Virus record (IMG/VR): IMGVR_UViG_3300013901_000001
From: a virus
Reading direction: 5' to 3' (one strand)
DNA: 64,000 bases
Positions 2,912 through 56,366 of the stretch are shown piece by piece. The notes beneath the pieces are model-generated. The model was given only the letters and a program-made list of their open reading frames with translations. It did no database searches and was not told the origin of the DNA. Both the position numbers and the translations under genes were made by a program. Position 1 is the stretch's first letter, and each line of letters opens with the position of its first letter.

Positions 2912-3174
2912 AGTGTACTGGTAGGTGTTATGTTGGCATTAAAGTCAATAATTCAATAAAGCAAAATGCAGAACAGGAAAAATAACTAAAAATTGATTTT
3001 AAAGCTGACGCAATGCCTATCAGTACAAAAGGCATTTTCAAGTGTCTAGTAGGTAAGTTGATTTCTTACCAAAACACTACAGAACAGCAAACTACAGAGC
3101 AGAAAACTATAATGCAGAACAGCGTAGCAAAAAATAGATAAACCACATAGATTTTGACTTACCTGTTAGGCACT
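2912..3174. repeat. intergenic repeat cluster: 18-19 nt motif (two direct, one inverted copy) plus four T(G/A)CAGA(A/G)CAG boxes
   Basis: AGTGTACTGGTAGGT 2912-, AGTGTCTAGTAGGTAAGTT 3041-3059, inverted GACTTACCTGTTAGGCACT 3156-3174; boxes at 2967, 3078, 3093, 3113. Confidence 0.6.
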
Positions 3175-3200
3175 TGATGATGCAAAAGAAAGGAGAAAAA

Positions 3201-3878
3201 ATGGCAAAAGCAAAGAAAATTACAATCGAACCGCTGAAAGAAACTACAATGCTTATTTCTCTTGTTGGAGATACTGATTTGATTTTATCTTCTAGAAACA
3301 GGCTGTATGTTCAATCGGAAGTTTGGAGACAGTCGCATGACAAAGGAAGTGATTTGCCAGATATATTTAAACAATCTAAGAATATTTGGGAGAACAGAAT
3401 TACTTCTATTCACTGGAAGAATCCTATTGAATATCACGATGAAGATATTTCTCTTTACACGGAAGATGAATGGAAGAATTACATGAAAGAAAATCAGCCT
3501 TGCTTGCTCGGAATTGGCTTTAGAAAAAGTTTTAAAGAAGCATTTGTTACTTTTTACAAGGACAGTACAGGTAAAAACGGAACTGATTTTACAAGAGCAT
3601 TGTGTATGGGAGATACCATTTTTCCTATTACGTTTTCTTCTGTAAGAATTGAAGATACTCTTGTTCCGACTAATGAAATGTGCACAACCTCTGTTATACA
3701 GACACAGAATGTTTTTAGCGGTTGGAAATGCGATATTTTGATTAGTTGCGTTGATATTGTTTTCCCACCTGAAACAATCTTATCTGTTATTAATACAACA
3801 GGAAAATATATTGGCATTGGATCGCAACGCAAGAACGGGATGGGAAGATACCACATTGAAAATGTAAAAATGGTTTAG
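3201..3878 (+). CDS. hypothetical protein with C-terminal glycine-rich loop (IGIGSQRKNGMGRY)
   Basis: ATG 3201 preceded by AAAGGAG; 225 aa; no family recognised with confidence. Confidence 0.55.
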   Translation: MAKAKKITIEPLKETTMLISLVGDTDLILSSRNRLYVQSEVWRQSHDKGSDLPDIFKQSKNIWENRITSIHWKNPIEYHDEDISLYTEDEWKNYMKENQPCLLGIGFRKSFKEAFVTFYKDSTGKNGTDFTRALCMGDTIFPITFSSVRIEDTLVPTNEMCTTSVIQTQNVFSGWKCDILISCVDIVFPPETILSVINTTGKYIGIGSQRKNGMGRYHIENVKMV

Positions 3879-3892
3879 AAAGGAGTTTTTTG

Positions 3893-4120
3893 ATGAGAGT
3901 TATAAGTCAGGACGGAACACTTGATATTCCATATGAAGGTCATATATTCGGTGCAAGCACGGAAGAAAATTGCATAATAGCGGTACATTTTAAAAACCCT
4001 AGCCCATGTATGGATTGGTATTCTACGCAAGAAAAAGCACTTAAGGCTCTTAAAATGTTGCGCGAAGCGCGTAAAAACGGATGCGTAGTATTTCAGTTTT
4101 CAAAGGAAGATGAGGTGTGA
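3893..4120 (+). CDS. hypothetical protein
   Basis: AAAGGAG 7 nt upstream of ATG 3893. Confidence 0.5.
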   Translation: MRVISQDGTLDIPYEGHIFGASTEENCIIAVHFKNPSPCMDWYSTQEKALKALKMLREARKNGCVVFQFSKEDEV

Positions 4121-4122
4121 AA

Positions 4123-4479
4123 ATGAAGATTATTGAGGGAAAAGAAAAAGAATACAAGGAATGGTACGACAAAAACAGCGATTCTTATAGCAGAGCGTGT
4201 TTTACATTCGCTGAAAGATGGGCGGGACTTTTGGAAGAAAAAATAGACAACTCTTCCGATTGTCCGATGAAGGTAATTGTCGATAACGCAAAACAATTAA
4301 GTGATGAAGCAAACACAGAAAGAATCACGGGATTTATGTATGGTTGTTCTGTTAATATTCTATCAAGAGTGTGGAAATACGGTGATGAATTAAGAATGTG
4401 GCACAATGGAAAATACAATTATCAGGGCGAAGGAACTGTAAACCCGGCTATTCTTACGGTTGGTGGCAAAGATGATTAA
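4123..4479 (+). CDS. hypothetical protein
   Basis: GAGGTG upstream of ATG 4123; overlaps previous stop. Confidence 0.5.
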   Translation: MKIIEGKEKEYKEWYDKNSDSYSRACFTFAERWAGLLEEKIDNSSDCPMKVIVDNAKQLSDEANTERITGFMYGCSVNILSRVWKYGDELRMWHNGKYNYQGEGTVNPAILTVGGKDD

Positions 4480-5176
4480 TCTGAAATGCTTATCTTCCGG
4501 AAGTAAAGGAAATTGCTATCTTCTGGAAGCTGATAACGGAGAAGTCCTTATCATTGATGCCGGAATACCAATCATGGATATTAAGCGTGGTCTGAACTGG
4601 AATGTGAGAAGTGTAGTCGGTGCGGTTATTACGCACCGGCACACAGACCATAGTAAAAGCATTGATGATTTACGGCACATGGGAATAAGAGTTGTTGCAC
4701 CGTATGAATCCGGAAACGTAAAGTCCATGAGTTTTTCACTGGGAAGTTTTAGAATACAGGCTTTTGATGTTTCGCACAACGGCTGTTGGAATAACGGATT
4801 TCTGATTAAGACTTCGGACGGACAGAAAATCTTGTATATGACCGATTTGGAGTACTGCCCGTATTCTTTCCGGAAGCAGAGCGTAGACCATATGCTTATC
4901 GAGTGCAATTACATGAAATCACTGGTTGACACGGACGCTCCGAATTACGTCCACAAGATTCGAGGTCACTGTGAACTGGAAACGACAAAAGGAATTGTCA
5001 AGGAGAATGCGACAGATAGCCTTGTAAACGTTATATTGTGCCATTTAGGACGTGATACTTGCGAAGAGGACAAAGTTATCGAAGAAGTGAAAAAGATCGT
5101 TCCTAGAGTCATTGTGGACGTTGCGAAAGGCGGCAAGGAATGGATTTTAAGAAAGGTCGGTGAGTGTCCGTTTTGA
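4472..5176 (+). CDS. metallo-beta-lactamase-fold hydrolase (possible recombination nuclease)
   Basis: HRHTDHS = HxHxDH motif; sits between the RecT-like gene and SSB. Confidence 0.7.
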   Translation: MINLKCLSSGSKGNCYLLEADNGEVLIIDAGIPIMDIKRGLNWNVRSVVGAVITHRHTDHSKSIDDLRHMGIRVVAPYESGNVKSMSFSLGSFRIQAFDVSHNGCWNNGFLIKTSDGQKILYMTDLEYCPYSFRKQSVDHMLIECNYMKSLVDTDAPNYVHKIRGHCELETTKGIVKENATDSLVNVILCHLGRDTCEEDKVIEEVKKIVPRVIVDVAKGGKEWILRKVGECPF

Positions 5177-5789: not shown

Positions 5790-6176
5790 ATGAAGAAAAA
5801 GGAACTTGCATATACCATGCTTCAAGGTGGTGCATCCATTAATGAAGTGGCCGAAAAGACAGGATTCAGCAAAGTTTACGTTAGAGAAATAAGAAGAAGC
5901 GCCATTCCCAAAATTACAATTTCGGATTATGAAGACAAAATTTGTTCCATGAGGGAAGACGGAAAATCATATGAAGAAATAGGCAGAGAAATCGGATATA
6001 GTTCATCGACAATCAAAAACTTCTTGCAGAAGGTTAGACAGGAAAGGAAGATCGTAGAAAACGCCGAGGAAGAAAGGGATCTTACATACGCTTCCAATAA
6101 ACCGCCAAGAAGCTATAGGGTTTCCTATCAGGGGAAACGGTATCTTTGTGAAAACGAGTTTTATATTCCGAGATAG
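5790..6176 (+). CDS. helix-turn-helix DNA-binding protein
   Basis: Two HTH-like segments (INEVAEKTGFSKVYV, YEEIGREIGYSSSTI); AAGGAG upstream. Confidence 0.5.
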   Translation: MKKKELAYTMLQGGASINEVAEKTGFSKVYVREIRRSAIPKITISDYEDKICSMREDGKSYEEIGREIGYSSSTIKNFLQKVRQERKIVENAEEERDLTYASNKPPRSYRVSYQGKRYLCENEFYIPR

Positions 6177-6452
6177 GAGGGTGCTTCCGTGAATCAGATG
6201 AACATATTTGATTTAATTAGAAAACCTATACAGATTACAAAGCCGATTCGTCTCATAGAATTATTTGCCGGGTATGGAAGCCAATCAATGGCATTGAAAA
6301 GAATTGGTGCAAACTTTGAGCATTATAGGGTTGTGGAATTTGATAAGTTTGCCATTGCAAGCTATAACGCAGTGCACGGAACAAATTTTCAAGCATTGGA
6401 CATTACAAAAATTCATGCAAATGATTTGAACATCTGTGATACAGAATCATTC

Positions 6453-6474
6453 ACTTACTTACTTACTTACTTAC
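6453..6474 (+). repeat. tetranucleotide repeat (ACTT)5+AC inside the methyltransferase, just before motif IV
   Basis: Read directly; removing one unit gives ...SFTYLLTYSFPCTDLS... in one frame. Confidence 0.95.
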
Positions 6475-6950
6475 TCGTTTCCTTGCACAGATCTTTCCGT
6501 AGCTGGGAAACGAGCCGGAATGAGTAAAGAAAGTGGAACAAGATCTGGACTTCTGTGGGAAGTGGAAAGAATACTTACTGAAATCAAAGAAGAAAAAGAA
6601 GAACTTCCACAGATTTTATTTATGGAGAATGTACCACAAGTGCATAGTTCGGATAATATGCCGGATTTTAGAAAATGGATAGATTTTCTTGAAAGCCTTG
6701 GTTACAAAAATTATTATCAGGACCTTAACGCAAAAAATTATGGAGTGGCGCAAAACCGTGAACGATGTTTTATGTTTTCGTTTCTTGGAGAATATAATTA
6801 CCATTTTCCACAGCCGTTTCCTCTTGAAAAGAAGTTAAAGGATTATTTGGAAGATAATGTTGATGAAAAGTATTACATCAATAATGAAAAATCCAAAAAG
6901 TTGATAAAGCAGCTTATTGACAACGGAACACTTCCTCAACACAATCTTGA

Positions 6951-7005
6951 GAGCAGAGCAGAGCAGAGCAGAGCAGAGCAGAGCAGAGCAGAGCAGAGCA
7001 GAGCA
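6951..7005 (+). repeat. pentanucleotide repeat (GAGCA)11 inside the methyltransferase
   Basis: Read directly; encodes (EQSRA)n in all three frames, so there is no stop in any frame. Confidence 0.95.
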
Positions 7006-7294
7006 AACTTGCGTTGACGGAACAATCTGCAATCCACAAAGAAGAAAGATTGCGAACTGTATCATGGCAAGAGACTACGGAATCTCAACACAGTCACAGA
7101 CAGGAAACCTTGTTGTTAAAAGGAATGTCAAGTAATAAATACGATCCATATGCAGAAAAAGCAGATATTTCAAGAACCATATGCGCTAGGGATTATAAGG
7201 GCTTAAATAATTTTGGACAGAATGGAGTAATTGAATGGAAATCATAGGAAGTATATACACGGGAGTTTCAGACGGATATCAGCACGGAATCTTA

Positions 7295-7304
7295 GGGGGG
7301 GGGG
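7295..7304 (+). repeat. G10 homopolymer at a frame break in the methyltransferase
   Basis: G9 would join ...HGILGGG to ISRCVKAENHDLGVV. Confidence 0.9.
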
Positions 7305-7418
7305 ATTTCCCGTTGTGTCAAAGCTGAAAATCATGATTTAGGAGTAGTTATGGCAGATGTGAATGTTTTAGGTAGTCTTGAATCGAAATTTGAGAGTACC
7401 AGTAGAATTTATGGAGTA

Positions 7419-7427
7419 GGGGGGGGG
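7419..7427 (+). repeat. G9 homopolymer at a frame break in the methyltransferase
   Basis: G10 would join ...SRIYGVGGG to VSPTLSTMQGGNQ. Confidence 0.9.
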
Positions 7428-7989
7428 TGAGTCCTACGTTAAGCACAATGCAAGGTGGTAATCAAAAACCGAAAATACTTGAAGTAAAACAGCTAGGATT
7501 TATGGAAAACGGAACTGGAAAACATCAGTCCAATACTGTATACGATGAAAACTCATTATCCCCTAGCATAACAACGGTTGAAAATGGTGGTACGCAACAG
7601 ATTAAAATATGCGAAAGCCAAATAGTTGCCATGCGTGGAAGAAATCCAGATAATCCGTCCGACAGAACTGCAGGAAGTCCAACGGAACAAAGACTTGAAT
7701 TAAATAAACATGAAACAAGTAATTGCATTACAAGTGTTCAAAAAGACAATATGGTTATGGAAAATCCCACATATCGCATAAGAAAACTTACCCCGAGAGA
7801 ATGCGGTAGACTTATGGATGTATCAGACGAAGATATTTCCAAAATGGAAAAGGTAAATAGCAACACGCAGCTATACAAACAGTTTGGAAATTCTATTGTA
7901 GTAGGTGTTATGTGCGAGATGTTTAAAAATTTAAACATAAATCAATAAGACCGGACAGTTCCGGTTTGCATAGTTTGGAGGAAAAGAAA

Positions 7990-8556
7990 ATGAAAGTAAA
8001 AAGAACAGTAACAATGAAAGTTAGCCATTTTGGGGTTGGAGACCAGATTACCGTAAAACTTCCAGAATACGGAAAGTTTACGGCTATGGCACATGAGATC
8101 ACGGACAAAGGAACATTATTTATCTTCGATGATTGTGTTTGCGAAAGATGGATGAACAAAGAAAATACGAATGAAGGTGGATATTTGGAATCTGACCTTA
8201 GAAAGTTTGTAACACAGGAGTTGCTAAAGGCATTTCCAGATAAACTGCTTGTAAGGATGGTAAAGGACGATAACGGAGATCTACTTTCCATTCCGACTTA
8301 CGGACAGGTTTTGGGTAAAGACTGGGACGATGAGTGGGATGAGAAAAACATTGAGATCGACAAGAGAGAACAATTGCCACTGATGCAGAAAAGAAAGAAC
8401 CGGATTGCAGATTTACAAAACGAATGGACATGGTACTGGTTGCAAAATAAAGTCCGGTCGTCGTCTCACTTCGCTCGCGTCGATGGCGATGGCCGTGCGG
8501 CCAACTACGGCGCGTCTGGCTCCGGCGGGGTTCGTCCGGCTTTCCTAATCAAGTAA
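7990..8556 (+). CDS. DGR target protein 1 (C-type-lectin-like variable C-terminus)
   Basis: GGAGG then ATG 7990; ends ...WYWLQNKVRSSSHFARVDGDGRAANYGASGSGGVRPAFLIK; 3' end matches the TR. Confidence 0.85.
   Translation: MKVKRTVTMKVSHFGVGDQITVKLPEYGKFTAMAHEITDKGTLFIFDDCVCERWMNKENTNEGGYLESDLRKFVTQELLKAFPDKLLVRMVKDDNGDLLSIPTYGQVLGKDWDDEWDEKNIEIDKREQLPLMQKRKNRIADLQNEWTWYWLQNKVRSSSHFARVDGDGRAANYGASGSGGVRPAFLIK
8453..8538 (+). repeat. DGR variable repeat VR1
   Basis: Gap-free match to TR 56391-56476; 17 of 18 differences are at TR adenines. Confidence 0.85.
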
Positions 8557-8564
8557 TCATTAAT

Positions 8565-8585
8565 CCGCGCCCCTTGTGGGCGTGG
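8565..8585 (+). promoter_or_regulatory. GC-rich hairpin downstream of VR1 (DGR homing-associated type)
   Basis: CCGCGCCC-CTTGT-GGGCGTGG, 8 bp including one G-T pair, 27 nt after the VR. Confidence 0.7.
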
Positions 8586-8621
8586 AAATGGAAGTAAATT
8601 GAAGATTAATGGAGGTAAACC

Positions 8622-9758: not shown

Positions 9759-11135
9759 ATGGATTACGAAGAGTTTTTAAAGAATAAAAGATTTGTTTTA
9801 GAAAGTAGTGGATTCGATATTGATAAATCCCAATTAAATCCGATGCTATACGACTTTCAGAAAGACATAGTTCGGTGGGCATTGAAGAAAGGAAAAGCCT
9901 GTATATTTGCAGATTGCGGACTTGGGAAAACACCTATGCAGTTATCGTGGGCGCATCAAGTTCACATGCATACTGGTGGGGATGTTCTTATTCTTACACC
10001 ATTAGCTGTTGCCGAACAGACAAAGCGAGAGGCTGAAAAATTCGGATATGATGCAAAAGTAGTTGATAAACAGGATGATTGCATCAACGGAATAAATATA
10101 ACGAACTATGAAAAGCTGGACAGGTTTGCTGCGAATCATTTTTCCGGAATTGTTCTTGATGAGAGCAGTATTTTGAAATCTTACAGTGGAAAAGTAAGAA
10201 CTGCCATTATTCAGAATTTCCATGAAGTTCCTTACAAATTAGCTTGCACAGCTACTCCAGCACCAAACGATTATATGGAATTGGGGAATCATTCGGAATT
10301 TTGTGGAGTGATGACAAGACCAGAAATGCTATCAATGTTCTTTGTGCATGATGGTGGAGAAACATCGAAATGGAGATTGAAAGGTCATGCAGAGGATGTG
10401 TTCTGGCAGTGGCTATCTACATTTAGCGTATTTGTTGATAATCCGAACAATATCGGATACGAGATTGATGGATATAATCTACCAGAACTTAAAATAAAAG
10501 AAATAATTGTGGATGGGGATACGACAACAACAGAGAACTTGACATTAACAGAACGGAGACAAGCGAGAAAGGATAGCTTGCAAAAAAGATGCGAATGTGC
10601 ATCAGAACTTGTAAATAATTCTAATGAGCAATGGCTTGTATGGTGTGACTTGAATGATGAAAGCCATAAGCTGCATGAATTAATCGAAGAAAGCGTTGAA
10701 GTTGAGGGAAGTGATAAAGAACAACACAAGTCTTCAGCCATGCTTGATTTTAGCAATGGGAATATAAAGTGTCTTGTTACAAAACCTAAAATTGCCGGAT
10801 TTGGGATGAATTGGCAGAACTGTCATAACATGATTTTTACCGGACTTTCGGATAGTTATGAGCAGTATTATCAGGCTCTCCGCAGATGTTGGAGATTTGG
10901 CCAGAGTGAACAGGTGAATGTTTATATTATCATTTCATCAAAAGAAGGATGCGTGAAAGAAAACATTGAAAGAAAGCAGAAAGACTTTGCAAAAATGCAG
11001 AAAGAAATGACAGAACTCACAAAGGAAATAACAAAAAAAGAACTAAGGAGTACGTGTAGGATTTCCACACCATATGAACCGCAAATACATCTAACTTTAC
11101 CGATGTGGGATGAATTTAAGAAAGGAAATGAATAG
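9759..11135 (+). CDS. SNF2/DEAD-like superfamily 2 helicase
   Basis: GLGKT Walker A, DESS box, TATPAPN, QALRRCWRFGQ motif VI. Confidence 0.85.
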   Translation: MDYEEFLKNKRFVLESSGFDIDKSQLNPMLYDFQKDIVRWALKKGKACIFADCGLGKTPMQLSWAHQVHMHTGGDVLILTPLAVAEQTKREAEKFGYDAKVVDKQDDCINGINITNYEKLDRFAANHFSGIVLDESSILKSYSGKVRTAIIQNFHEVPYKLACTATPAPNDYMELGNHSEFCGVMTRPEMLSMFFVHDGGETSKWRLKGHAEDVFWQWLSTFSVFVDNPNNIGYEIDGYNLPELKIKEIIVDGDTTTTENLTLTERRQARKDSLQKRCECASELVNNSNEQWLVWCDLNDESHKLHELIEESVEVEGSDKEQHKSSAMLDFSNGNIKCLVTKPKIAGFGMNWQNCHNMIFTGLSDSYEQYYQALRRCWRFGQSEQVNVYIIISSKEGCVKENIERKQKDFAKMQKEMTELTKEITKKELRSTCRISTPYEPQIHLTLPMWDEFKKGNE

Positions 11136-11136
11136 A

Positions 11137-12063
11137 ATGGACGTTTTAGCACAGACAATAGAAAAGAATTATGCAATTTACAATGGAGATAGTTGCGAAC
11201 TGATTAAGGCAATTCCGAATAATAGCATTCATTACACTATTTTTAGTCCACCATTTGCAAGCCTATATACTTACTCCAACAGTGATAGGGATATGGGAAA
11301 CAGCAAGGGAGATGATGAATTTTACGAACACTTTAAATTCCTAGCAACAGAACTTTATAGGGTAACGATGCCTGGACGATTGCTTTCGTTTCACTGCATG
11401 GATTTACCACTAATGAAAGAAAGGGATGGCGTGATCGGATTAAAAGATTTCCCGGCACTTGTAAGACAGATTTTTGAAGATTGCGGTTTTATTTATCATA
11501 GTAAGGTGACGATTTGGAAAAATCCGGTCACAGAAATGCAGAGAACTAAGGCACATGGGCTTCTTCACAAGCAAATAAGGAAAGACAGTACAATGAACAG
11601 GCAAGGAATCCCAGATTACATTGTTACGATGCGGAAACCGGGCGAGAATCCAGAGAGAGTATCGCATACACATGAAACATTTCCTGTTGATGTGTGGCAG
11701 AATTACGCAAGTCCTGTATGGATGGATATTCGGCAGTCTGATACATTGCAAAAGAAGTCTGCAAGGGAAAACAAGGATGAGCGTCATATCTGTCCGTTAC
11801 AATTAGAAGTAATTCAAAGATGCATTGAATTATGGACGAATAAAAATGACATAGTTTTAGATCCGTTTGCCGGAATTGGCAGCAGCCCATACGTTGCTGT
11901 TACGATGGGGAGACGTGGCATAGGATTTGAACTTAAAGAAAGCTACTATAAACAGGCTGTTGCAAACCTTGAAGCAGCAGTAAGTTTTAATAAGATGGAT
12001 TGCCCGGTAGGTCAAATGTCAATTGAGGATTTTTTAGGGGAGAATGTCTTGCAGTGCAGTTAA
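11137..12063 (+). CDS. DNA methyltransferase, N6-adenine/N4-cytosine class
   Basis: SPPF catalytic motif near the N-terminus and DPFAGIGSS AdoMet motif near the C-terminus. Confidence 0.85.
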   Translation: MDVLAQTIEKNYAIYNGDSCELIKAIPNNSIHYTIFSPPFASLYTYSNSDRDMGNSKGDDEFYEHFKFLATELYRVTMPGRLLSFHCMDLPLMKERDGVIGLKDFPALVRQIFEDCGFIYHSKVTIWKNPVTEMQRTKAHGLLHKQIRKDSTMNRQGIPDYIVTMRKPGENPERVSHTHETFPVDVWQNYASPVWMDIRQSDTLQKKSARENKDERHICPLQLEVIQRCIELWTNKNDIVLDPFAGIGSSPYVAVTMGRRGIGFELKESYYKQAVANLEAAVSFNKMDCPVGQMSIEDFLGENVLQCS

Positions 12064-14705: not shown

Positions 14706-15275
14706 ATGAAAGCATGGAGAAAAGTAAAAATGGAGATCAAAAACTATAAGGTCGGAGATCAGATCGCGGTGAAACTCAAAGGTTTTGGGAAATTTACGGC
14801 TACGGCGCAGAGAGTTTATGACGATGGAAAAACGCTGTTTCTTTTCGATAACTGCGTTGCAGAACGGCATATGAACGAAAACGGTTCAAATTCCGGAGGT
14901 TTTTATGAATCCGACTTATGCAAGTGGATGAATACAAAATTGGTGAAAACTTTTCCTGCTAAACTTCTTGACCGCATGATTTATACGGACGAAGAGCATG
15001 AATGTCTGCTTCGAATTCCGACAAGAAAGGAAATGTTCGGAGAGAATGAATATAGCGAAAATTACGAACCTGATTTAGACAAACAGCTTGAACTTATGAA
15101 AGACAGAAAAAATCGTGTATGCTCACTTCCTGATGATGAATATGCATGGTATTGGTTGATGAACGCGAATATCCGGTCGTCGTCTGGCTTCGCTTGTGTC
15201 CCTAGCCGTGGCACTGCGCTCACCGGCGACGCGTCTGCCTCCCTCGGGGTTCGTCCGGCTTTCCTAATCAAGTAA
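14706..15275 (+). CDS. DGR target protein 2, paralogue of target 1
   Basis: GGAGG then ATG 14706; VGDQIAVKL...GGFYESDL...WYWLMNANIRSSSGFACVPSRGTALTGDASASLGVRPAFLIK. Confidence 0.85.
   Translation: MKAWRKVKMEIKNYKVGDQIAVKLKGFGKFTATAQRVYDDGKTLFLFDNCVAERHMNENGSNSGGFYESDLCKWMNTKLVKTFPAKLLDRMIYTDEEHECLLRIPTRKEMFGENEYSENYEPDLDKQLELMKDRKNRVCSLPDDEYAWYWLMNANIRSSSGFACVPSRGTALTGDASASLGVRPAFLIK
15170..15257 (+). repeat. DGR variable repeat VR2
   Basis: 88-nt gap-free match to the TR; all 19 differences are at TR adenines. Confidence 0.9.
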
Positions 15276-15283
15276 TCATTAAT

Positions 15284-15304
15284 CCGCGCCCCTTGTGGGC
15301 GTGG
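15284..15304 (+). promoter_or_regulatory. GC-rich hairpin downstream of VR2
   Basis: Identical to the VR1 hairpin; the ~70 nt after both stops are identical. Confidence 0.7.
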
Positions 15305-15341
15305 AAATGGAAGTAAAATTAAAATTTCGGAGGTAAAGTAG

Positions 15342-29830: not shown

Positions 29831-29910
29831 GACGGGAAACCGCCCTTTTTCTTTGCGATTCTGGACGATAACGCTATATAGAATGTTATATAACAAGATA
29901 TATAATAAGC

Positions 29911-30005
29911 TATATAATAATTCATATATGGTAATTCTTATATAGTAATTCTGTATGATATTTACTATATAATAATTCTGTGTTATAATTACTATATAGT
30001 AATTC
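29911..30005. repeat. iteron array TATATA(A/G)TAATTC x4 at ~27-bp spacing
   Basis: Copies at 29911, 29939, 29966, 29993, plus degenerate half-copies between them. Confidence 0.8.
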
Positions 30006-30036
30006 ATATATAATAATCACAACAGGAGGTTTTACA

Positions 30037-30839: not shown

Positions 30840-30859
30840 AACACTACTGATATACCTAA

Positions 30860-30982
30860 ACAATCTCAACGTAAATAAAGCCAATAAACTATCGTTTAGC
30901 CAATACATTGTTTTTATAACACTCTCAACGTAAATACTACTAATAACTTACCGTGTAGCCAATAACTTATATTTATAACACC
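30860..30982. repeat. two ~59-nt tandem direct repeats (CTCAACGTAAATA...TAGCCAATA...TTTATAACAC)
   Basis: Units start at 30865 and 30924; roughly three quarters identical by eye. Confidence 0.7.
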
Positions 30983-32111: not shown

Positions 32112-32338
32112 AAATAGGGTATGGTCTATTTTTACGCATGAAAAATTGTGCAATATGACTAACGAATCCGGAATGACTCCTTGACCACCAGAAGCACCCG
32201 GGAGGGGGTTACACGGGAACCGCCGAAACCGCCCACTTAGCCCCTCAACCACCCCAAAAATCAAAAAGCCACTTATCCAAAACGGATAAACAAAGCAAGG
32301 ATAATCCAATTCTTAAAAATTTTTTAAAAACAAAAAAA

Positions 32339-32348
32339 GGGGGGGGGG
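32339..32348. repeat. G10 homopolymer preceded by A7, intergenic
   Basis: Read directly. Confidence 0.9.
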
Positions 32349-33982: not shown

Positions 33983-34747
33983 ATGATCTTGAATTGCATA
34001 AACTGTGGTGCACCGATTGATAATACAAAAACAAAATGCCCGTATTGCGACACTCCATATAAGTTAAATGGATTTGCTGGTGAGATTTCAGAGGAAAGTA
34101 ACTGCGGAGTGTTGAATATAGGCGGTCATTTCTACGATGACTATTTGTCCAGTGTAGAGGTAGGGGATTACGGATACATGGGATATAGGGATGCCACAGG
34201 AAGGTCGATAAGAGAAGTAAGAAACATTCACAGAACGTTACGTTGGAGACTTACTAACATGATGATAAATATTTTGTTTCTTGTGGATTCAATAGAAGAC
34301 GCTGCATTAGAAACATACATAACTGAAAATGTCGTGAAAGATAAACGAGGGATTTTTGACATTGATTACGAATATGCGATGATAAGCATTAATAACATAA
34401 AAGTGTGGTTTTGCGCTCCAGAAGCTGAAAGATGCATTTCTCCAATATTGTTTTGTGATTGTGTAGTTGTAGATGTAAATACGGCTAAAGGAATTTTGGA
34501 AAAAGAAAATCTGCAAAGAATGCGTAAAACGATACCGTTTTATGACAGATCTTGTTTTTATAAGACAATGATTGACGAATGGGAGAGGAAGAACGTGAAA
34601 AAGAGTATTATTGACCGTTGGAAGAAGCATGGAGAATTTACAAGGCGTTGCATGATAGCCGGATTTTCAAAAGATTTTATTCCTACACGGTTTGAATATG
34701 CAATTACAGGCACTAAACTTCATAAGTTAATCTATGGGAGAAACTAA
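33983..34747 (+). CDS. zinc-ribbon N-terminal hypothetical protein
   Basis: CINCGAP..CPYCDTPY; 254 aa. Confidence 0.5.
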   Translation: MILNCINCGAPIDNTKTKCPYCDTPYKLNGFAGEISEESNCGVLNIGGHFYDDYLSSVEVGDYGYMGYRDATGRSIREVRNIHRTLRWRLTNMMINILFLVDSIEDAALETYITENVVKDKRGIFDIDYEYAMISINNIKVWFCAPEAERCISPILFCDCVVVDVNTAKGILEKENLQRMRKTIPFYDRSCFYKTMIDEWERKNVKKSIIDRWKKHGEFTRRCMIAGFSKDFIPTRFEYAITGTKLHKLIYGRN

Positions 34748-54948: not shown

Positions 54949-55788
54949 ATGGCAATTAATAAAGTGGAATATAGCGGAAATACATTAATTGACTTGACTT
55001 CTGACAGCGTAACACCGGAATCTTTACTTTCCGGCGTTACCGCACATGATGCGTCTGGAAATTTGATTATAGGAGAACTTAATCCGCAAAGAATATTTGA
55101 TAATGCCGGATATCACAACAGTATTTTTCGTGGAAAGAACTTGGGAACGGCTGTTCCGGAAGAACAATACGAAGCTATTTCTTCCGGAGAGTTCACGGAT
55201 TTGTATGTAGGTGATTACTGGACTTTAAACAACGTTGTTTACCGTATTGCCGGATTTGATCTGTTTTTACATACGGGGGATACAGAGTTAACAACGCATC
55301 ATGTTGTTATTGTGCCGGATAAAAATATGTACAGTCACGTGATGAATGATACAAATGTGACCACCGGCGGTTACTACAATAGCAAAATGAAACAAAGTGG
55401 TCTGACACAGGCTCTGACTACGGTAAAGGCGGCATTCGGTGAAAGCCACATAGTAAAAAGAAGAGTAATTTTAACAAATGCCACAAATGGAGATAATCCA
55501 TCCGGATGGGCGTGGTACGATACCTACATTGACCTTATGACAGAACGGCAGGTATATGGATCTCCTGCATGGGGACAGGCGGCACATAATGGATATGATG
55601 CCGGATGTGAGTATTCAAGACTTCCGTTGTTTGCACTTGCACCGGAATTTATCACAAATAGAGAATGGTATTGGCTACGAGATATCCGGTCGTCGTCTGG
55701 CTTCGCTGGTGTCTCTGGCCAGGGCCGTGCGACCGACGCCGACGCGTCTCGCTTCGGCGGGGTTCGTCCGCTTTTTTTAATCTCTTAA
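54949..55788 (+). CDS. DGR target protein 3 (fibre-attachment N-terminus plus variable lectin-like C-terminus)
   Basis: Ends ...EWYWLRDIRSSSGFAGVSGQGRATDADASRFGGVRPLFLIS. Confidence 0.9.
   Translation: MAINKVEYSGNTLIDLTSDSVTPESLLSGVTAHDASGNLIIGELNPQRIFDNAGYHNSIFRGKNLGTAVPEEQYEAISSGEFTDLYVGDYWTLNNVVYRIAGFDLFLHTGDTELTTHHVVIVPDKNMYSHVMNDTNVTTGGYYNSKMKQSGLTQALTTVKAAFGESHIVKRRVILTNATNGDNPSGWAWYDTYIDLMTERQVYGSPAWGQAAHNGYDAGCEYSRLPLFALAPEFITNREWYWLRDIRSSSGFAGVSGQGRATDADASRFGGVRPLFLIS
55683..55770 (+). repeat. DGR variable repeat VR3
   Basis: 88-nt gap-free match to the TR; 19 of 21 differences are at TR adenines. Confidence 0.9.
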
Positions 55789-55798
55789 TCGTCAATCA

Positions 55799-55815
55799 CC
55801 GCCCCATGTGGGCGG
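55799..55815 (+). promoter_or_regulatory. GC-rich hairpin downstream of VR3
   Basis: CCGCCC-CATGT-GGGCGG. Confidence 0.7.
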
Positions 55816-55838
55816 AGTTGACGAAGAAAGGAGCATAT

Positions 55839-56366
55839 ATGTCAGAAATACCAAAGTCAAGAAGAAAAGAATCAAAATTAGAAGTAATTCACAAAGCGTA
55901 TAAATTACGAGCTAGAATAACAAATGAACTAATATGCAGCTTCGGATATTCTCAAAAGAAATATGAAGCACATTTAAACAAAGCGGTAAGACATATTCGG
56001 GACGAAACAGAACGCGAGGAAAAGAAAGAAGTTCTGCGCAAAATGGAAGGAAATTTTGATTTCTGGATTATTGAAAAAGAAAGAGACGATATTCTACATT
56101 ACACAAAAGGAATCGTAAATCATCTTATATCTGCAAACACAATATATCCGGTTAATGTATCGGAATATGAAGAACGCAGATTGGAAATGGATAGAGCGTT
56201 GGTGTGTTGCACGTGTCTTCAACAGGAATTGCAGTACATCGCAGAAGTTCTTCCGTCTGACAAGAATAAGTACATGAACATAGTGCTTGAAATTCAAACG
56301 ATCCGAGAAATGATAAAAGGGCTTCGCCAATCCGACAACAGATTTTTAAGAGATATCAATAAATAA
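55839..56366 (+). CDS. avd: DGR accessory variability determinant (Avd-like)
   Basis: GAAAGGAG then ATG 55839; basic helical 175-aa protein between the target and the TR. Confidence 0.7.
   Translation: MSEIPKSRRKESKLEVIHKAYKLRARITNELICSFGYSQKKYEAHLNKAVRHIRDETEREEKKEVLRKMEGNFDFWIIEKERDDILHYTKGIVNHLISANTIYPVNVSEYEERRLEMDRALVCCTCLQQELQYIAEVLPSDKNKYMNIVLEIQTIREMIKGLRQSDNRFLRDINK

Follow-up and report, generated by a model that had tools for sequence, protein, structure and literature searches.

What is one to make of a phage methyltransferase gene whose signature motifs follow one another in the proper order, but in a reading frame that changes six times along the way? The question is raised by positions 6189–7948 (plus strand) of a 64,000-nucleotide (64-kb) stretch of viral DNA (IMG/VR record IMGVR_UViG_3300013901_000001; henceforth the window), where three-frame translation uncovers a DNA (cytosine-5) (C5) methyltransferase with many target-recognition domains (TRDs) running through frames 0, 1, 2, 0, 2, 0, 2 (all coordinates are those of the window and 1-based; the frame is the coordinate modulo 3). 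An earlier, sequence-only reading of this DNA had offered a phase-variable switch locked OFF, a decaying gene and a split enzyme as separate possibilities. Our analysis leads us to conclude with considerable confidence that the locus is a hypermutable, repeat-controlled split methyltransferase of predicted activity, and that “phase-variable” and “split” hold together instead of being alternatives, a point that the earlier reading had missed. With less assurance, though on balance favorably, we view it as a phage contingency locus that switches both the methyltransferase activity and the TRD repertoire.

The C5 motifs I, IV (with its PC), VI, VIII (QxRxR), IX and X occur in canonical order, spread over several frames in the window allele (Table 1), and between motifs VIII and IX lie six TRD-like units, each displaying an x-[TCN]-[ILV]-x-[AST] core. 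Motif location and three-frame translation confirmed the motif order and frame path that had been read from the sequence, and all six of the TRD-like units claimed there were located. Repair by six minimal edits yields an open reading frame (ORF) of 586 amino acids (aa) that matches PF00145 at 1.8e-56. In the PDB, the first of the two ORFs described below (ORF1) matches an M.MpeI-type enzyme (5e-35) and M.HhaI (4e-22), being alignable to residues 9–221 of the latter, and the C-terminal part of the second (ORF2) is alignable to residues 270–317. By these similarities the product belongs to the DNA (cytosine-5) methyltransferase family (PF00145), with methyl transfer as its predicted activity.

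Four of the six frame changes sit at simple repeats, namely (ACTT)5, (AGAGC)11, G10 and G9, the last two being called the G1 and G2 tracts below. The ACTT and AGAGC tracts are the sole tetra- and pentanucleotide repeats across the 64 kb, and the two poly-G tracts are two of the three runs of at least nine Gs, the third (at 32339) being intergenic; from dinucleotide-preserving shuffles, 0.00 matches are expected for ACTT as for AGAGC, and 0.20 for G9. A protein search recovered an in-frame ORF1 allele from other contigs (P0012, 339 aa), which shares the start at 6189 and is identical in reading to the window as far as the AGAGC tract, but with 4 ACTT units and a short AGAGC tract. The three ENA contigs of P0012 differ from window positions 6100–8000 only in the four tracts and by two isolated differences, a substitution at 7507 (L004) and an insertion of 1 nucleotide (nt) past the stop codon (L003). 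Through identical neighboring genes and the 173-aa C-terminal ORF we assembled a set of 20 alleles of the same phage (the window and 19 contigs). One of these, the 67,353-bp contig L101 (ERZ808249, an accession neighboring the ERZ808271 of the window record, NODE_27), aligns to window positions 5790–8556 (2.77 kb) with 0 mismatches and 4 gaps, which are exactly the four tracts. Across the set, the ACTT tract has 3 units in L104 and L109, 4 in nine contigs and 5 in the window and L110; the AGAGC tract has 4, 5, 6, 8 or 11 units; the G1 tract takes ten forms, from G7 to G13 with a trailing A, AA or AGA, and is G9, and hence in frame, in L101, L103, L113 and L132; and the G2 tract is G7 in four alleles, G8 in ten, G9 in five and G10 in one. 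A control region of 21.5 kb of structural genes from the same genomes shows 0–10 gap openings against 17–78 mismatches. The poly-G lengths agree between the ENA contigs and those of Logan, a separate assembly collection built from single sequencing runs (L102 equaling the window and L103 equaling L101). Thus, in a comparison between samples, tract length varies between near-identical genomes far above the flanks; the four tracts are hypermutable and, because they vary among alleles of the same phage, the gene is phase-variable between samples.

The claim that most of the breaks fall at slippage-prone repeats accordingly stands for ACTT, AGAGC, G10 and G9, but fails for the A4 run (7118) and the A3 run (7238), which are unchanged in 14/14 other same-phage alleles covering both. 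These two apparent frameshifts are ruled out as lesions or sequencing errors, as they are invariant in every covering allele and match the conserved architecture set out below. As for the third long G run, the intergenic G10 at 32339–32348, it is G7, G8 or G10 in same-phage contigs with no frame affected; A-rich sequence precedes it and ATGAAATGAG follows it, and just upstream, in the AT-rich intergenic region, lies a short G+C-rich segment (32180–32260, ccagaagcacccgggagggggttacacgggaaccgccgaaaccgccc...).

The two larger repeats govern ORF1. Four ACTT units are in frame, reading TYLLTYSFPC as do the in-frame homologues, and with 3 or 5 units ORF1 stops upstream of the catalytic Cys of motif IV. 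The AGAGC tract goes beyond the plain ON/OFF break that had been seen in it: it is a selector between two alternative TRDs in overlapping frames, which the earlier reading had missed. Past this tract, frame 2 (register A) encodes TRD A (TCVDGTICNPQRRKIANCIMARDYG...GNLVV), frame 0 (register B) encodes a linker (KLALTEQ...ETLLLKGMSS) and then TRD B, and frame 1 (register x) stops after three codons. Thus, unit numbers of 1 modulo 3 give the linker with TRD B (ORF1 of 339 aa), those of 0 modulo 3 give TRD A (305 aa) and those of 2 modulo 3 give an immediate stop with no TRD (264 or 269 aa). Indeed, the alleles with 4, 5, 6 and 8 units have ORF1 sizes of 339, 264, 305 and 269 aa as predicted, the one with 11 (the window) being truncated, and the nine alleles with an ACTT tract in the ON state divide into three with no TRD, three with TRD A and three with TRD B as the ORF1 tail. 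The break at 7118 is not a slippage site but marks where a stretch with two open frames ends.

This layout is widely represented among relatives. In IMG/VR, 317 matches encode a relative of the methyltransferase, and we examined 80 of these loci, mostly on phage contigs of 30–60 kb (six shorter, two longer) and with 70–86% amino-acid identity in ORF1. Their selector site is occupied by (GACA)3–23 or (AGAGC)4–10. Register A is open for 39–54 codons in about 55/61 of them, register B is kept over 74–87 codons and register x meets a stop within 1–5 codons in nearly all, so that the three-register layout is present in about 58 of the 61 scorable relatives. Register B is read by P0012, P0037 and many ORFs of 340–360 aa, and register A by P0057, P0077, P0081, P0083, P0088 and P0105; there are also fused enzymes, some with TRD A (P0020, P0025 and that of Dulem virus 39) and others with the linker frame (P0019, P0002–P0010).

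The remaining break, at 7238, is a conserved junction of two ORFs, by which the enzyme is split inside its variable region as in M.AquI, since ORF1 aligns to residues 9–221 of M.HhaI and the end of ORF2 to residues 270–317. Read in one frame, the junction sequence AATGGAGTRATTGAATGGAA gives NGVIEWK followed by a stop, and its −1 frame offers GGAG, a 7-nt spacer and an ATG. About 55 of the 80 IMG/VR relatives retain this sequence, which does not vary among the 14 same-phage alleles covering it, and three unrelated modules are found downstream of it (MEVIGSIYTGV, MEKLTDAIGIVLFE and MEQRRLGNLYG). The natural start of the second polypeptide is thus predicted to be the ATG at 7235, with the GTG at 7427 at most a fall-back start; hence, the likeness to M.AquI proposed earlier survives as regards a split in the variable region, but the split point is the GGAG–ATG of 7224–7237 and not 7427. 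Gene callers report ORFs of 198/199 aa from the ATG of the 7340–7352 site (L002, L105, L112) and of 173 aa from 7427, and ORF2 alleles of 236, 198/199 and 173 aa occur in the same phage. ORF1 and ORF2 are both complete in about 17 relatives. The conserved Shine–Dalgarno–ATG junction, together with selection on both ORFs, suggests that the two are both made and jointly required. Programmed −1 frameshifting at the junction was rejected, as its three variants lack a common slippery heptamer. The “alpha/beta subunit” annotation of Streptococcus phage MM1 was likewise rejected as a true split, being a nested ORF inside a full-length gene.

The relatives also bear on whether these parts are maintained. 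ACTT-type repeats occur at the motif IV site in most of the 80 loci, and G6–G9 runs at one or two sites in ORF2. From the junction ATG through motif X, ORF2 is intact in 21/68 loci, and 43 of the 47 broken ones are completed by changes of 1–2 nt in one or two G runs alone (8/47 in an A-run control). Diversity at codon positions 1/2/3 is 0.112/0.062/0.383 over motifs VI–VIII of ORF1, 0.070/0.039/0.312 over motifs IX–X of ORF2, 0.227/0.227/0.372 in TRD B and 0.104/0.106/0.208 in the TRD A frame, and where the two frames overlap, the ratio of amino-acid to nucleotide changes is 0.37 in frame A vs 0.58 in frame B. These patterns show purifying selection on ORF1, ORF2 and TRD A, and indicate that in the overlap TRD A is the selected reading and the linker frame merely held open. 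Since the split lineages can read TRD A only as an ORF1 tail, the TRD A-tailed ORF1 is evidently expressed and selected.

Some relatives depart from this pattern in ways of their own. In six of them (L037, L045, L046, L057, L065, L083; at about 3066–3110 in 7-kb loci) motif I reads TTTGCTGGC TGA(C/A)C GGC TAC GGA, with an 8-nt insert after the Gly codon whose removal gives FAGYGS; this could be akin to a short translational hop site (GGC take-off, TGA stop, GGC 8 nt downstream) or a conserved lesion. The relative L048 has an (ACAG)10 repeat at 1084–1123, in frame as TDRQTDRQTDRQT, within a gene for a 403-aa protein (664–1875) with the SGGKDS PP-loop motif (PAPS-reductase-like). This gene, located about 2 kb upstream of the L048 methyltransferase, may be a second one for DNA modification under repeat control, and no counterpart of it exists in the window. 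In the same-phage neighborhood of L111, an unrelated 535-aa C5 methyltransferase without repeats (3399–5006) occupies the slot between the same flanking genes, which suggests that the slot swaps methyltransferase cassettes.

We propose that slipped-strand mispairing during replication would alter the length of the four tracts. ORF1 (from 6189) would furnish motifs I–VIII and ORF2 (from the ATG at 7235) further TRDs with motifs IX–X, the two presumably assembling as in M.AquI. The (ACTT)n tract would be the master switch of the whole enzyme, ON with n = 4 and OFF with n = 3 or 5, as in the latter two cases ORF1 does not reach the catalytic Cys. The (AGAGC)n tract would pick the tail of ORF1 (no TRD, TRD A, or the linker with TRD B), the G1 tract would govern the attachment of TRD C to the C-terminal catalytic part and the G2 tract that of TRD D to the constant C-terminal part (TRDs E and F and motifs IX–X). 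Shorter forms of ORF2 may additionally arise from internal sites with a Shine–Dalgarno sequence and a start (AGGAG–ATG, 7340–7352; GGAG...GTG, 7413–7429). Progeny with different 5-methylcytosine (5mC) patterns, or none, would then be a form of bet-hedging between hosts with restriction enzymes that methylation blocks and hosts in which methylated DNA is attacked. With three ORF1 tails (none, A, B) and three ORF2 lengths (TRDs E–F, D–F, C–F), nine combinations could be produced; we are evenly divided on the most specific form of the model, namely that a large family of phages, probably of gut Lachnospiraceae, has a combinatorial epigenetic switch of one OFF state and up to nine TRD combinations. 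The window allele itself has 5 ACTT units (OFF), 11 AGAGC units (the stop register) and a G10 and a G9 that are out of frame. All four tracts are thus non-productive, and the 173-aa C-terminal ORF is still open. The notion of a phase-variable switch locked OFF is therefore apt as to the varying tracts and the state of this allele at all four of them, but does not describe the AGAGC tract, which is no plain ON/OFF device.

Several points weigh against the model. Of the alleles of this phage, 13 are complete, and each has at least one tract outside the maximal register. Variation of the ACTT tract is confined to this phage lineage among the loci compared, the IMG/VR relatives reading ORF1 through the tract in frame with 3–5 copies according to the sequence variant. 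Poly-G lengths taken from short-read assemblies could be partly technical. The relatives share ancestry, so that locus counts overstate independent support. Finally, the assembly of ORF1 with ORF2, the activity of an ORF1-borne TRD and the use of the internal starts enter the model as deductions from sequence.

With respect to the alternatives, we consider it unlikely, but deserving of some weight, that the locus is a plain ON/OFF switch, in which one register combination is active and the truncated forms and alternative TRD sets are functionless. Tract variability and its frame consequences would be identical under both models, nothing demonstrates a change in specificity, and the majority of known repeat-controlled methyltransferases are ON/OFF switches (PMC7383803). 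Yet TRD A, which is readable in one register only and always as an ORF1 tail, is under purifying selection; two open frames with a stop in the third, at about 58/61 loci, would be needless for such a switch; and the ORF1 forms among the ACTT-ON alleles are represented 3, 3 and 3. That the frames are instead rejoined in expression, by transcriptional slippage on the G runs or by ribosomal frameshifting or hopping, to give a single fused multi-TRD protein, appears improbable to us. RNA polymerase slippage is possible on long homopolymer runs, there are fused single-ORF relatives reading NGVIEVMADV (L020, L023, L041, L057, L080, L084), and the insert in motif I of the six relatives mentioned above is an apparent short hop site. 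However, across its three variants the junction presents a conserved GGAG, 7 nt and ATG and no conserved slippery heptamer, the ACTT and AGAGC registers are beyond rescue by slippage, and slippage on the G runs would make the switch less sharp without taking its place.

Decay of a dispensable gene at its mutational hot spots, as had been proposed, is very improbable. Although the window allele is broken at six places, no same-phage allele has all its tracts maximal and L111 has a different methyltransferase in the slot, the breaks are nearly confined to the tracts, with 64/68 ORF2s intact or restorable at the G runs. Moreover, in the catalytic parts diversity at third positions exceeds that at positions 1 and 2 by a factor of 3–8, and lineages at 70–86% identity have retained both the tracts and the junction. 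A pseudogene is contradicted by these data, as the relatives lack stops and indels spread along the gene; nearly all of their disruptions fall in the tracts, purifying selection acts outside them, and a design that is conserved and selected argues against decay. We find it scarcely credible that the tract lengths are sequencing or assembly artefacts. Poly-G is error-prone on some Illumina chemistries, and several contigs end at the AGAGC/GACA repeat. But differences of whole 4- and 5-nt units (ACTT 3/4/5; AGAGC 4/5/6/8/11), in high-coverage contigs from many samples, correspond to no known error type, the poly-G lengths agree between Logan and ENA, and the 21.5-kb control has very few indels. 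The contig ends at the AGAGC/GACA repeat were also discounted as a sign of within-sample heterogeneity, for contigs break in any case at a repeat that exceeds the assembly k-mer in length.

A comparison with known systems brings out what is shared and what is peculiar in the proposed contingency locus. The multispecific enzymes of the Bacillus phages (M.SPRI and those of SPbeta and phi3T) are likewise phage-encoded, with the ten motifs in canonical order and tandem TRDs between motifs VIII and IX, and they share with the window enzyme a DEKYY(L/I)NxEK segment past motif VIII. The resemblance to the SPR and phi3T enzymes that had been suggested is upheld by BLASTP of the repaired protein (SPbeta enzyme, 3e-31 and 2e-18; M.SPRI, 1e-26 and 1e-15) and by the likeness of TRD D to RVYSPEGLSPTLTTMGGGHREPKI of SPbeta and of TRD E to the NVYNSSGLSPTITT unit of M.SPRI; TRD modules are shuffled among the homologues. 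Unlike the Bacillus phage enzymes, which are single polypeptides without repeat tracts, the window enzyme comprises two ORFs and four hypermutable tracts, and two of its TRDs are alternatives by reading register. It departs from the single-polypeptide condition by the conserved stop at 7245–7247 and the restart at the ATG of 7235, and fused relatives exist (P0002–P0010). A DNA search of GenBank phages found no close relative; the best match, with about 71% identity, was the intact, repeat-free methyltransferase from Dulem virus 39, which we used only for placing the frame junctions. Phase-variable C5 methyltransferases exist in Helicobacter pylori, and repeats in C5 enzymes are not new per se.

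In M.AquI, the large subunit has motifs I–VIII along with a portion of the variable region, and the small subunit the rest with motifs IX–X (PMC3404938). The division between two ORFs is the same here, with overlapping genes; however, M.AquI is bacterial, of single specificity and without phase variation, whereas the locus has TRDs and repeat control in both halves and an assembly that is deduced. In bacterial phasevarions of the Type III mod and Type I hsdM/hsdS kinds, repeats in the coding sequence shift the frame and alter methyltransferase expression (PMC7383803, PMC11868660). Those systems are N6-adenine-directed, reside on the bacterial chromosome and usually have one tract acting ON/OFF, in contrast to a C5 enzyme of a phage with four tracts, one of them selecting among three products. 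The nearest precedent for a repeat that alters specificity and not activity is the Type I system NgoAV of Neisseria gonorrhoeae, in which a poly-G in hsdS1 controls the fusion of a second recognition domain, thereby changing the recognized sequence (PMC9577141). NgoAV, however, involves a Type I specificity subunit whose single tract has two useful states; alternative domains that overlap are absent from it, and it is not of a phage. Among phages, contingency loci comprise homopolymers in agt and rIIA of T2/T4 and poly-G in receptor-binding genes of Campylobacter phages, yielding mixed progeny and bet-hedging; the 2025 preprint describing them states that such loci were previously unreported in phages, its cases are single homopolymers, and it notes, without further study, that a methylase gene of phage BPP-1 contains a poly-G tract (PMC12633550). 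Unlike those single-homopolymer ON/OFF loci, the one in the window combines tetra- and pentanucleotide repeats with two homopolymers and apparently alters recognition modules. In the open-access literature that we searched, no phage C5 methyltransferase with multiple TRDs and switching by repeats is described.

If our model is correct, methyltransferase phase variation by repeats, a classic of bacterial pathogens, would extend to a phage anti-restriction enzyme, and each burst would yield phages with varied methylation, a hedge between hosts with classical restriction–modification and those with methylation-dependent restriction. The phenomenon would be of some scale, given the 317 IMG/VR matches and the repeats at the same positions in most of the 80 examined, and one repeat choosing between two recognition domains in overlapping frames would be a new selector design. 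There is also a consequence for annotation: gene calling routinely breaks such genes into three to six pieces or labels them pseudogenes, and surveys of gut viromes for phage methyltransferases and methylation motifs will overlook or mis-assign them.

Table 1. Features of the methyltransferase locus and two neighboring genes in the 64-kb window.
Feature	Coordinates	Strand	Remark
Metallo-beta-lactamase-fold hydrolase, faint Apyc1 match	4460–5176		
Shine–Dalgarno AGGAGGG (6175–6181) and GTG start of ORF1 (6189)	6175–6191	+	sequence; P0012 starts here
ORF1 N-terminal part, frame 0, holding motif I	6189–6452	+	aligns to M.HhaI from residue 9
Motif I, FAGYG	6264–6278	+	sequence read
(ACTT)5 tract	6453–6472	+	before motif IV
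ORF1 catalytic core, frame 1 in the window allele: motifs IV, VI, VIII, then DEKYYINNEK...LIDNGTL	6473–6949	+	
Motif IV, FPCTDLS	6478–6498	+	sequence read
Motif VI, ENV	6625–6633	+	sequence read
Motif VIII, QNRER	6751–6765	+	sequence read
(AGAGC)11 tract	6950–7004	+	after motif VIII
Register x (the window's current one), frame 1: NLR, then stop 7015–7017; ORF1 without TRD	7005–7017	+	
Register A, frame 2: TRD A TCVDGTICNPQRRKIANCIMARDYGISTQSQTGNLVV, stop 7133–7135, overlapping register B	7007–7135	+	
Register B, frame 0: linker KLALTEQ...ETLLL, TRD B RTICARDYKG (7173–7202), NGVIEWKS, stop 7245–7247	7005–7247	+	
ORF1/ORF2 junction: GGAG, 7 nt, ATG 7235 in the −1 frame, overlapping the register B stop of ORF1 (7245–7247)	7224–7237	+	
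ORF2 start and first half of TRD C MEIIGSIYTGVSDGYQHGILGG, frame 2	7235–7294	+	intact 236-aa ORF2 (L101, L103) starts here
G10 tract (G1)	7295–7304	+	G9 is the in-frame length; G10 stops ORF2 after 30 codons
Second half of TRD C ISRCVKAENHD, AGGAG–ATG 7340–7352, start of TRD D MADVNVLGSLESKFESTSRIYGV, frame 0	7305–7418	+	
G9 tract (G2)	7419–7427	+	G7/G10 link frame 0 to the C-terminal frame; G9 leads to stop 7428–7430
Constant C-terminal ORF, 173 aa from GTG 7427, frame 2: TRD D end SPTLSTMQGG, TRD E SPSITTVENGG, TRD F SNCITSVQKDN, motifs IX and X	7427–7948	+	
Motif IX, RKLTPRECGRLM	7781–7816	+	sequence read
Motif X, GNSIV	7886–7900	+	sequence read
Second, intact N6/N4 methyltransferase	11110–12063		

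Beyond the locus, the window is that of a tailed phage, with genes for a terminase, an SPP1-type portal, a major head protein and a 1,443-aa tape measure protein, and a repressor-like gene that makes lysogeny possible. From two look-up coordinates, the window appears to be a rotation of a circular assembly (a 67,359-bp record) with a terminal overlap of about 55 nt. Relatives occur in metagenome-assembled genomes labelled Lachnospiraceae or Roseburia. The region 3174–5176 and 11110–12063 also encodes a single-stranded DNA-binding protein (SSB) and a helix-turn-helix (HTH) protein, and a PF25186 Tad4 gene lies upstream in the record; with the Tad4-family gene, the metallo-beta-lactamase-fold hydrolase and the second methyltransferase nearby, the neighborhood fits an anti-defence role for the locus.

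We also noted minor features elsewhere in the genome. A gene for a 254-aa protein (33983–34747) is split into 91 and 162/147 aa in L115, L117–L119 and L135, in L115 and L117 by a T2-to-T3 indel near 34238, an ordinary indel polymorphism with no repeat tract. A dispersed direct repeat of 155 nt is present in three copies (8453–8607, 15172–15326 and 55685–55839) with 74–100% identity, and several short contigs stop near the first of these, at about 8,553. Lastly, AT-rich tandem repeats with periods of 12–41 nt and 59 nt occur at 29868–30017 and 30859–30981 in a gene-poor stretch; these arrays may be a replication origin or regulatory iterons.

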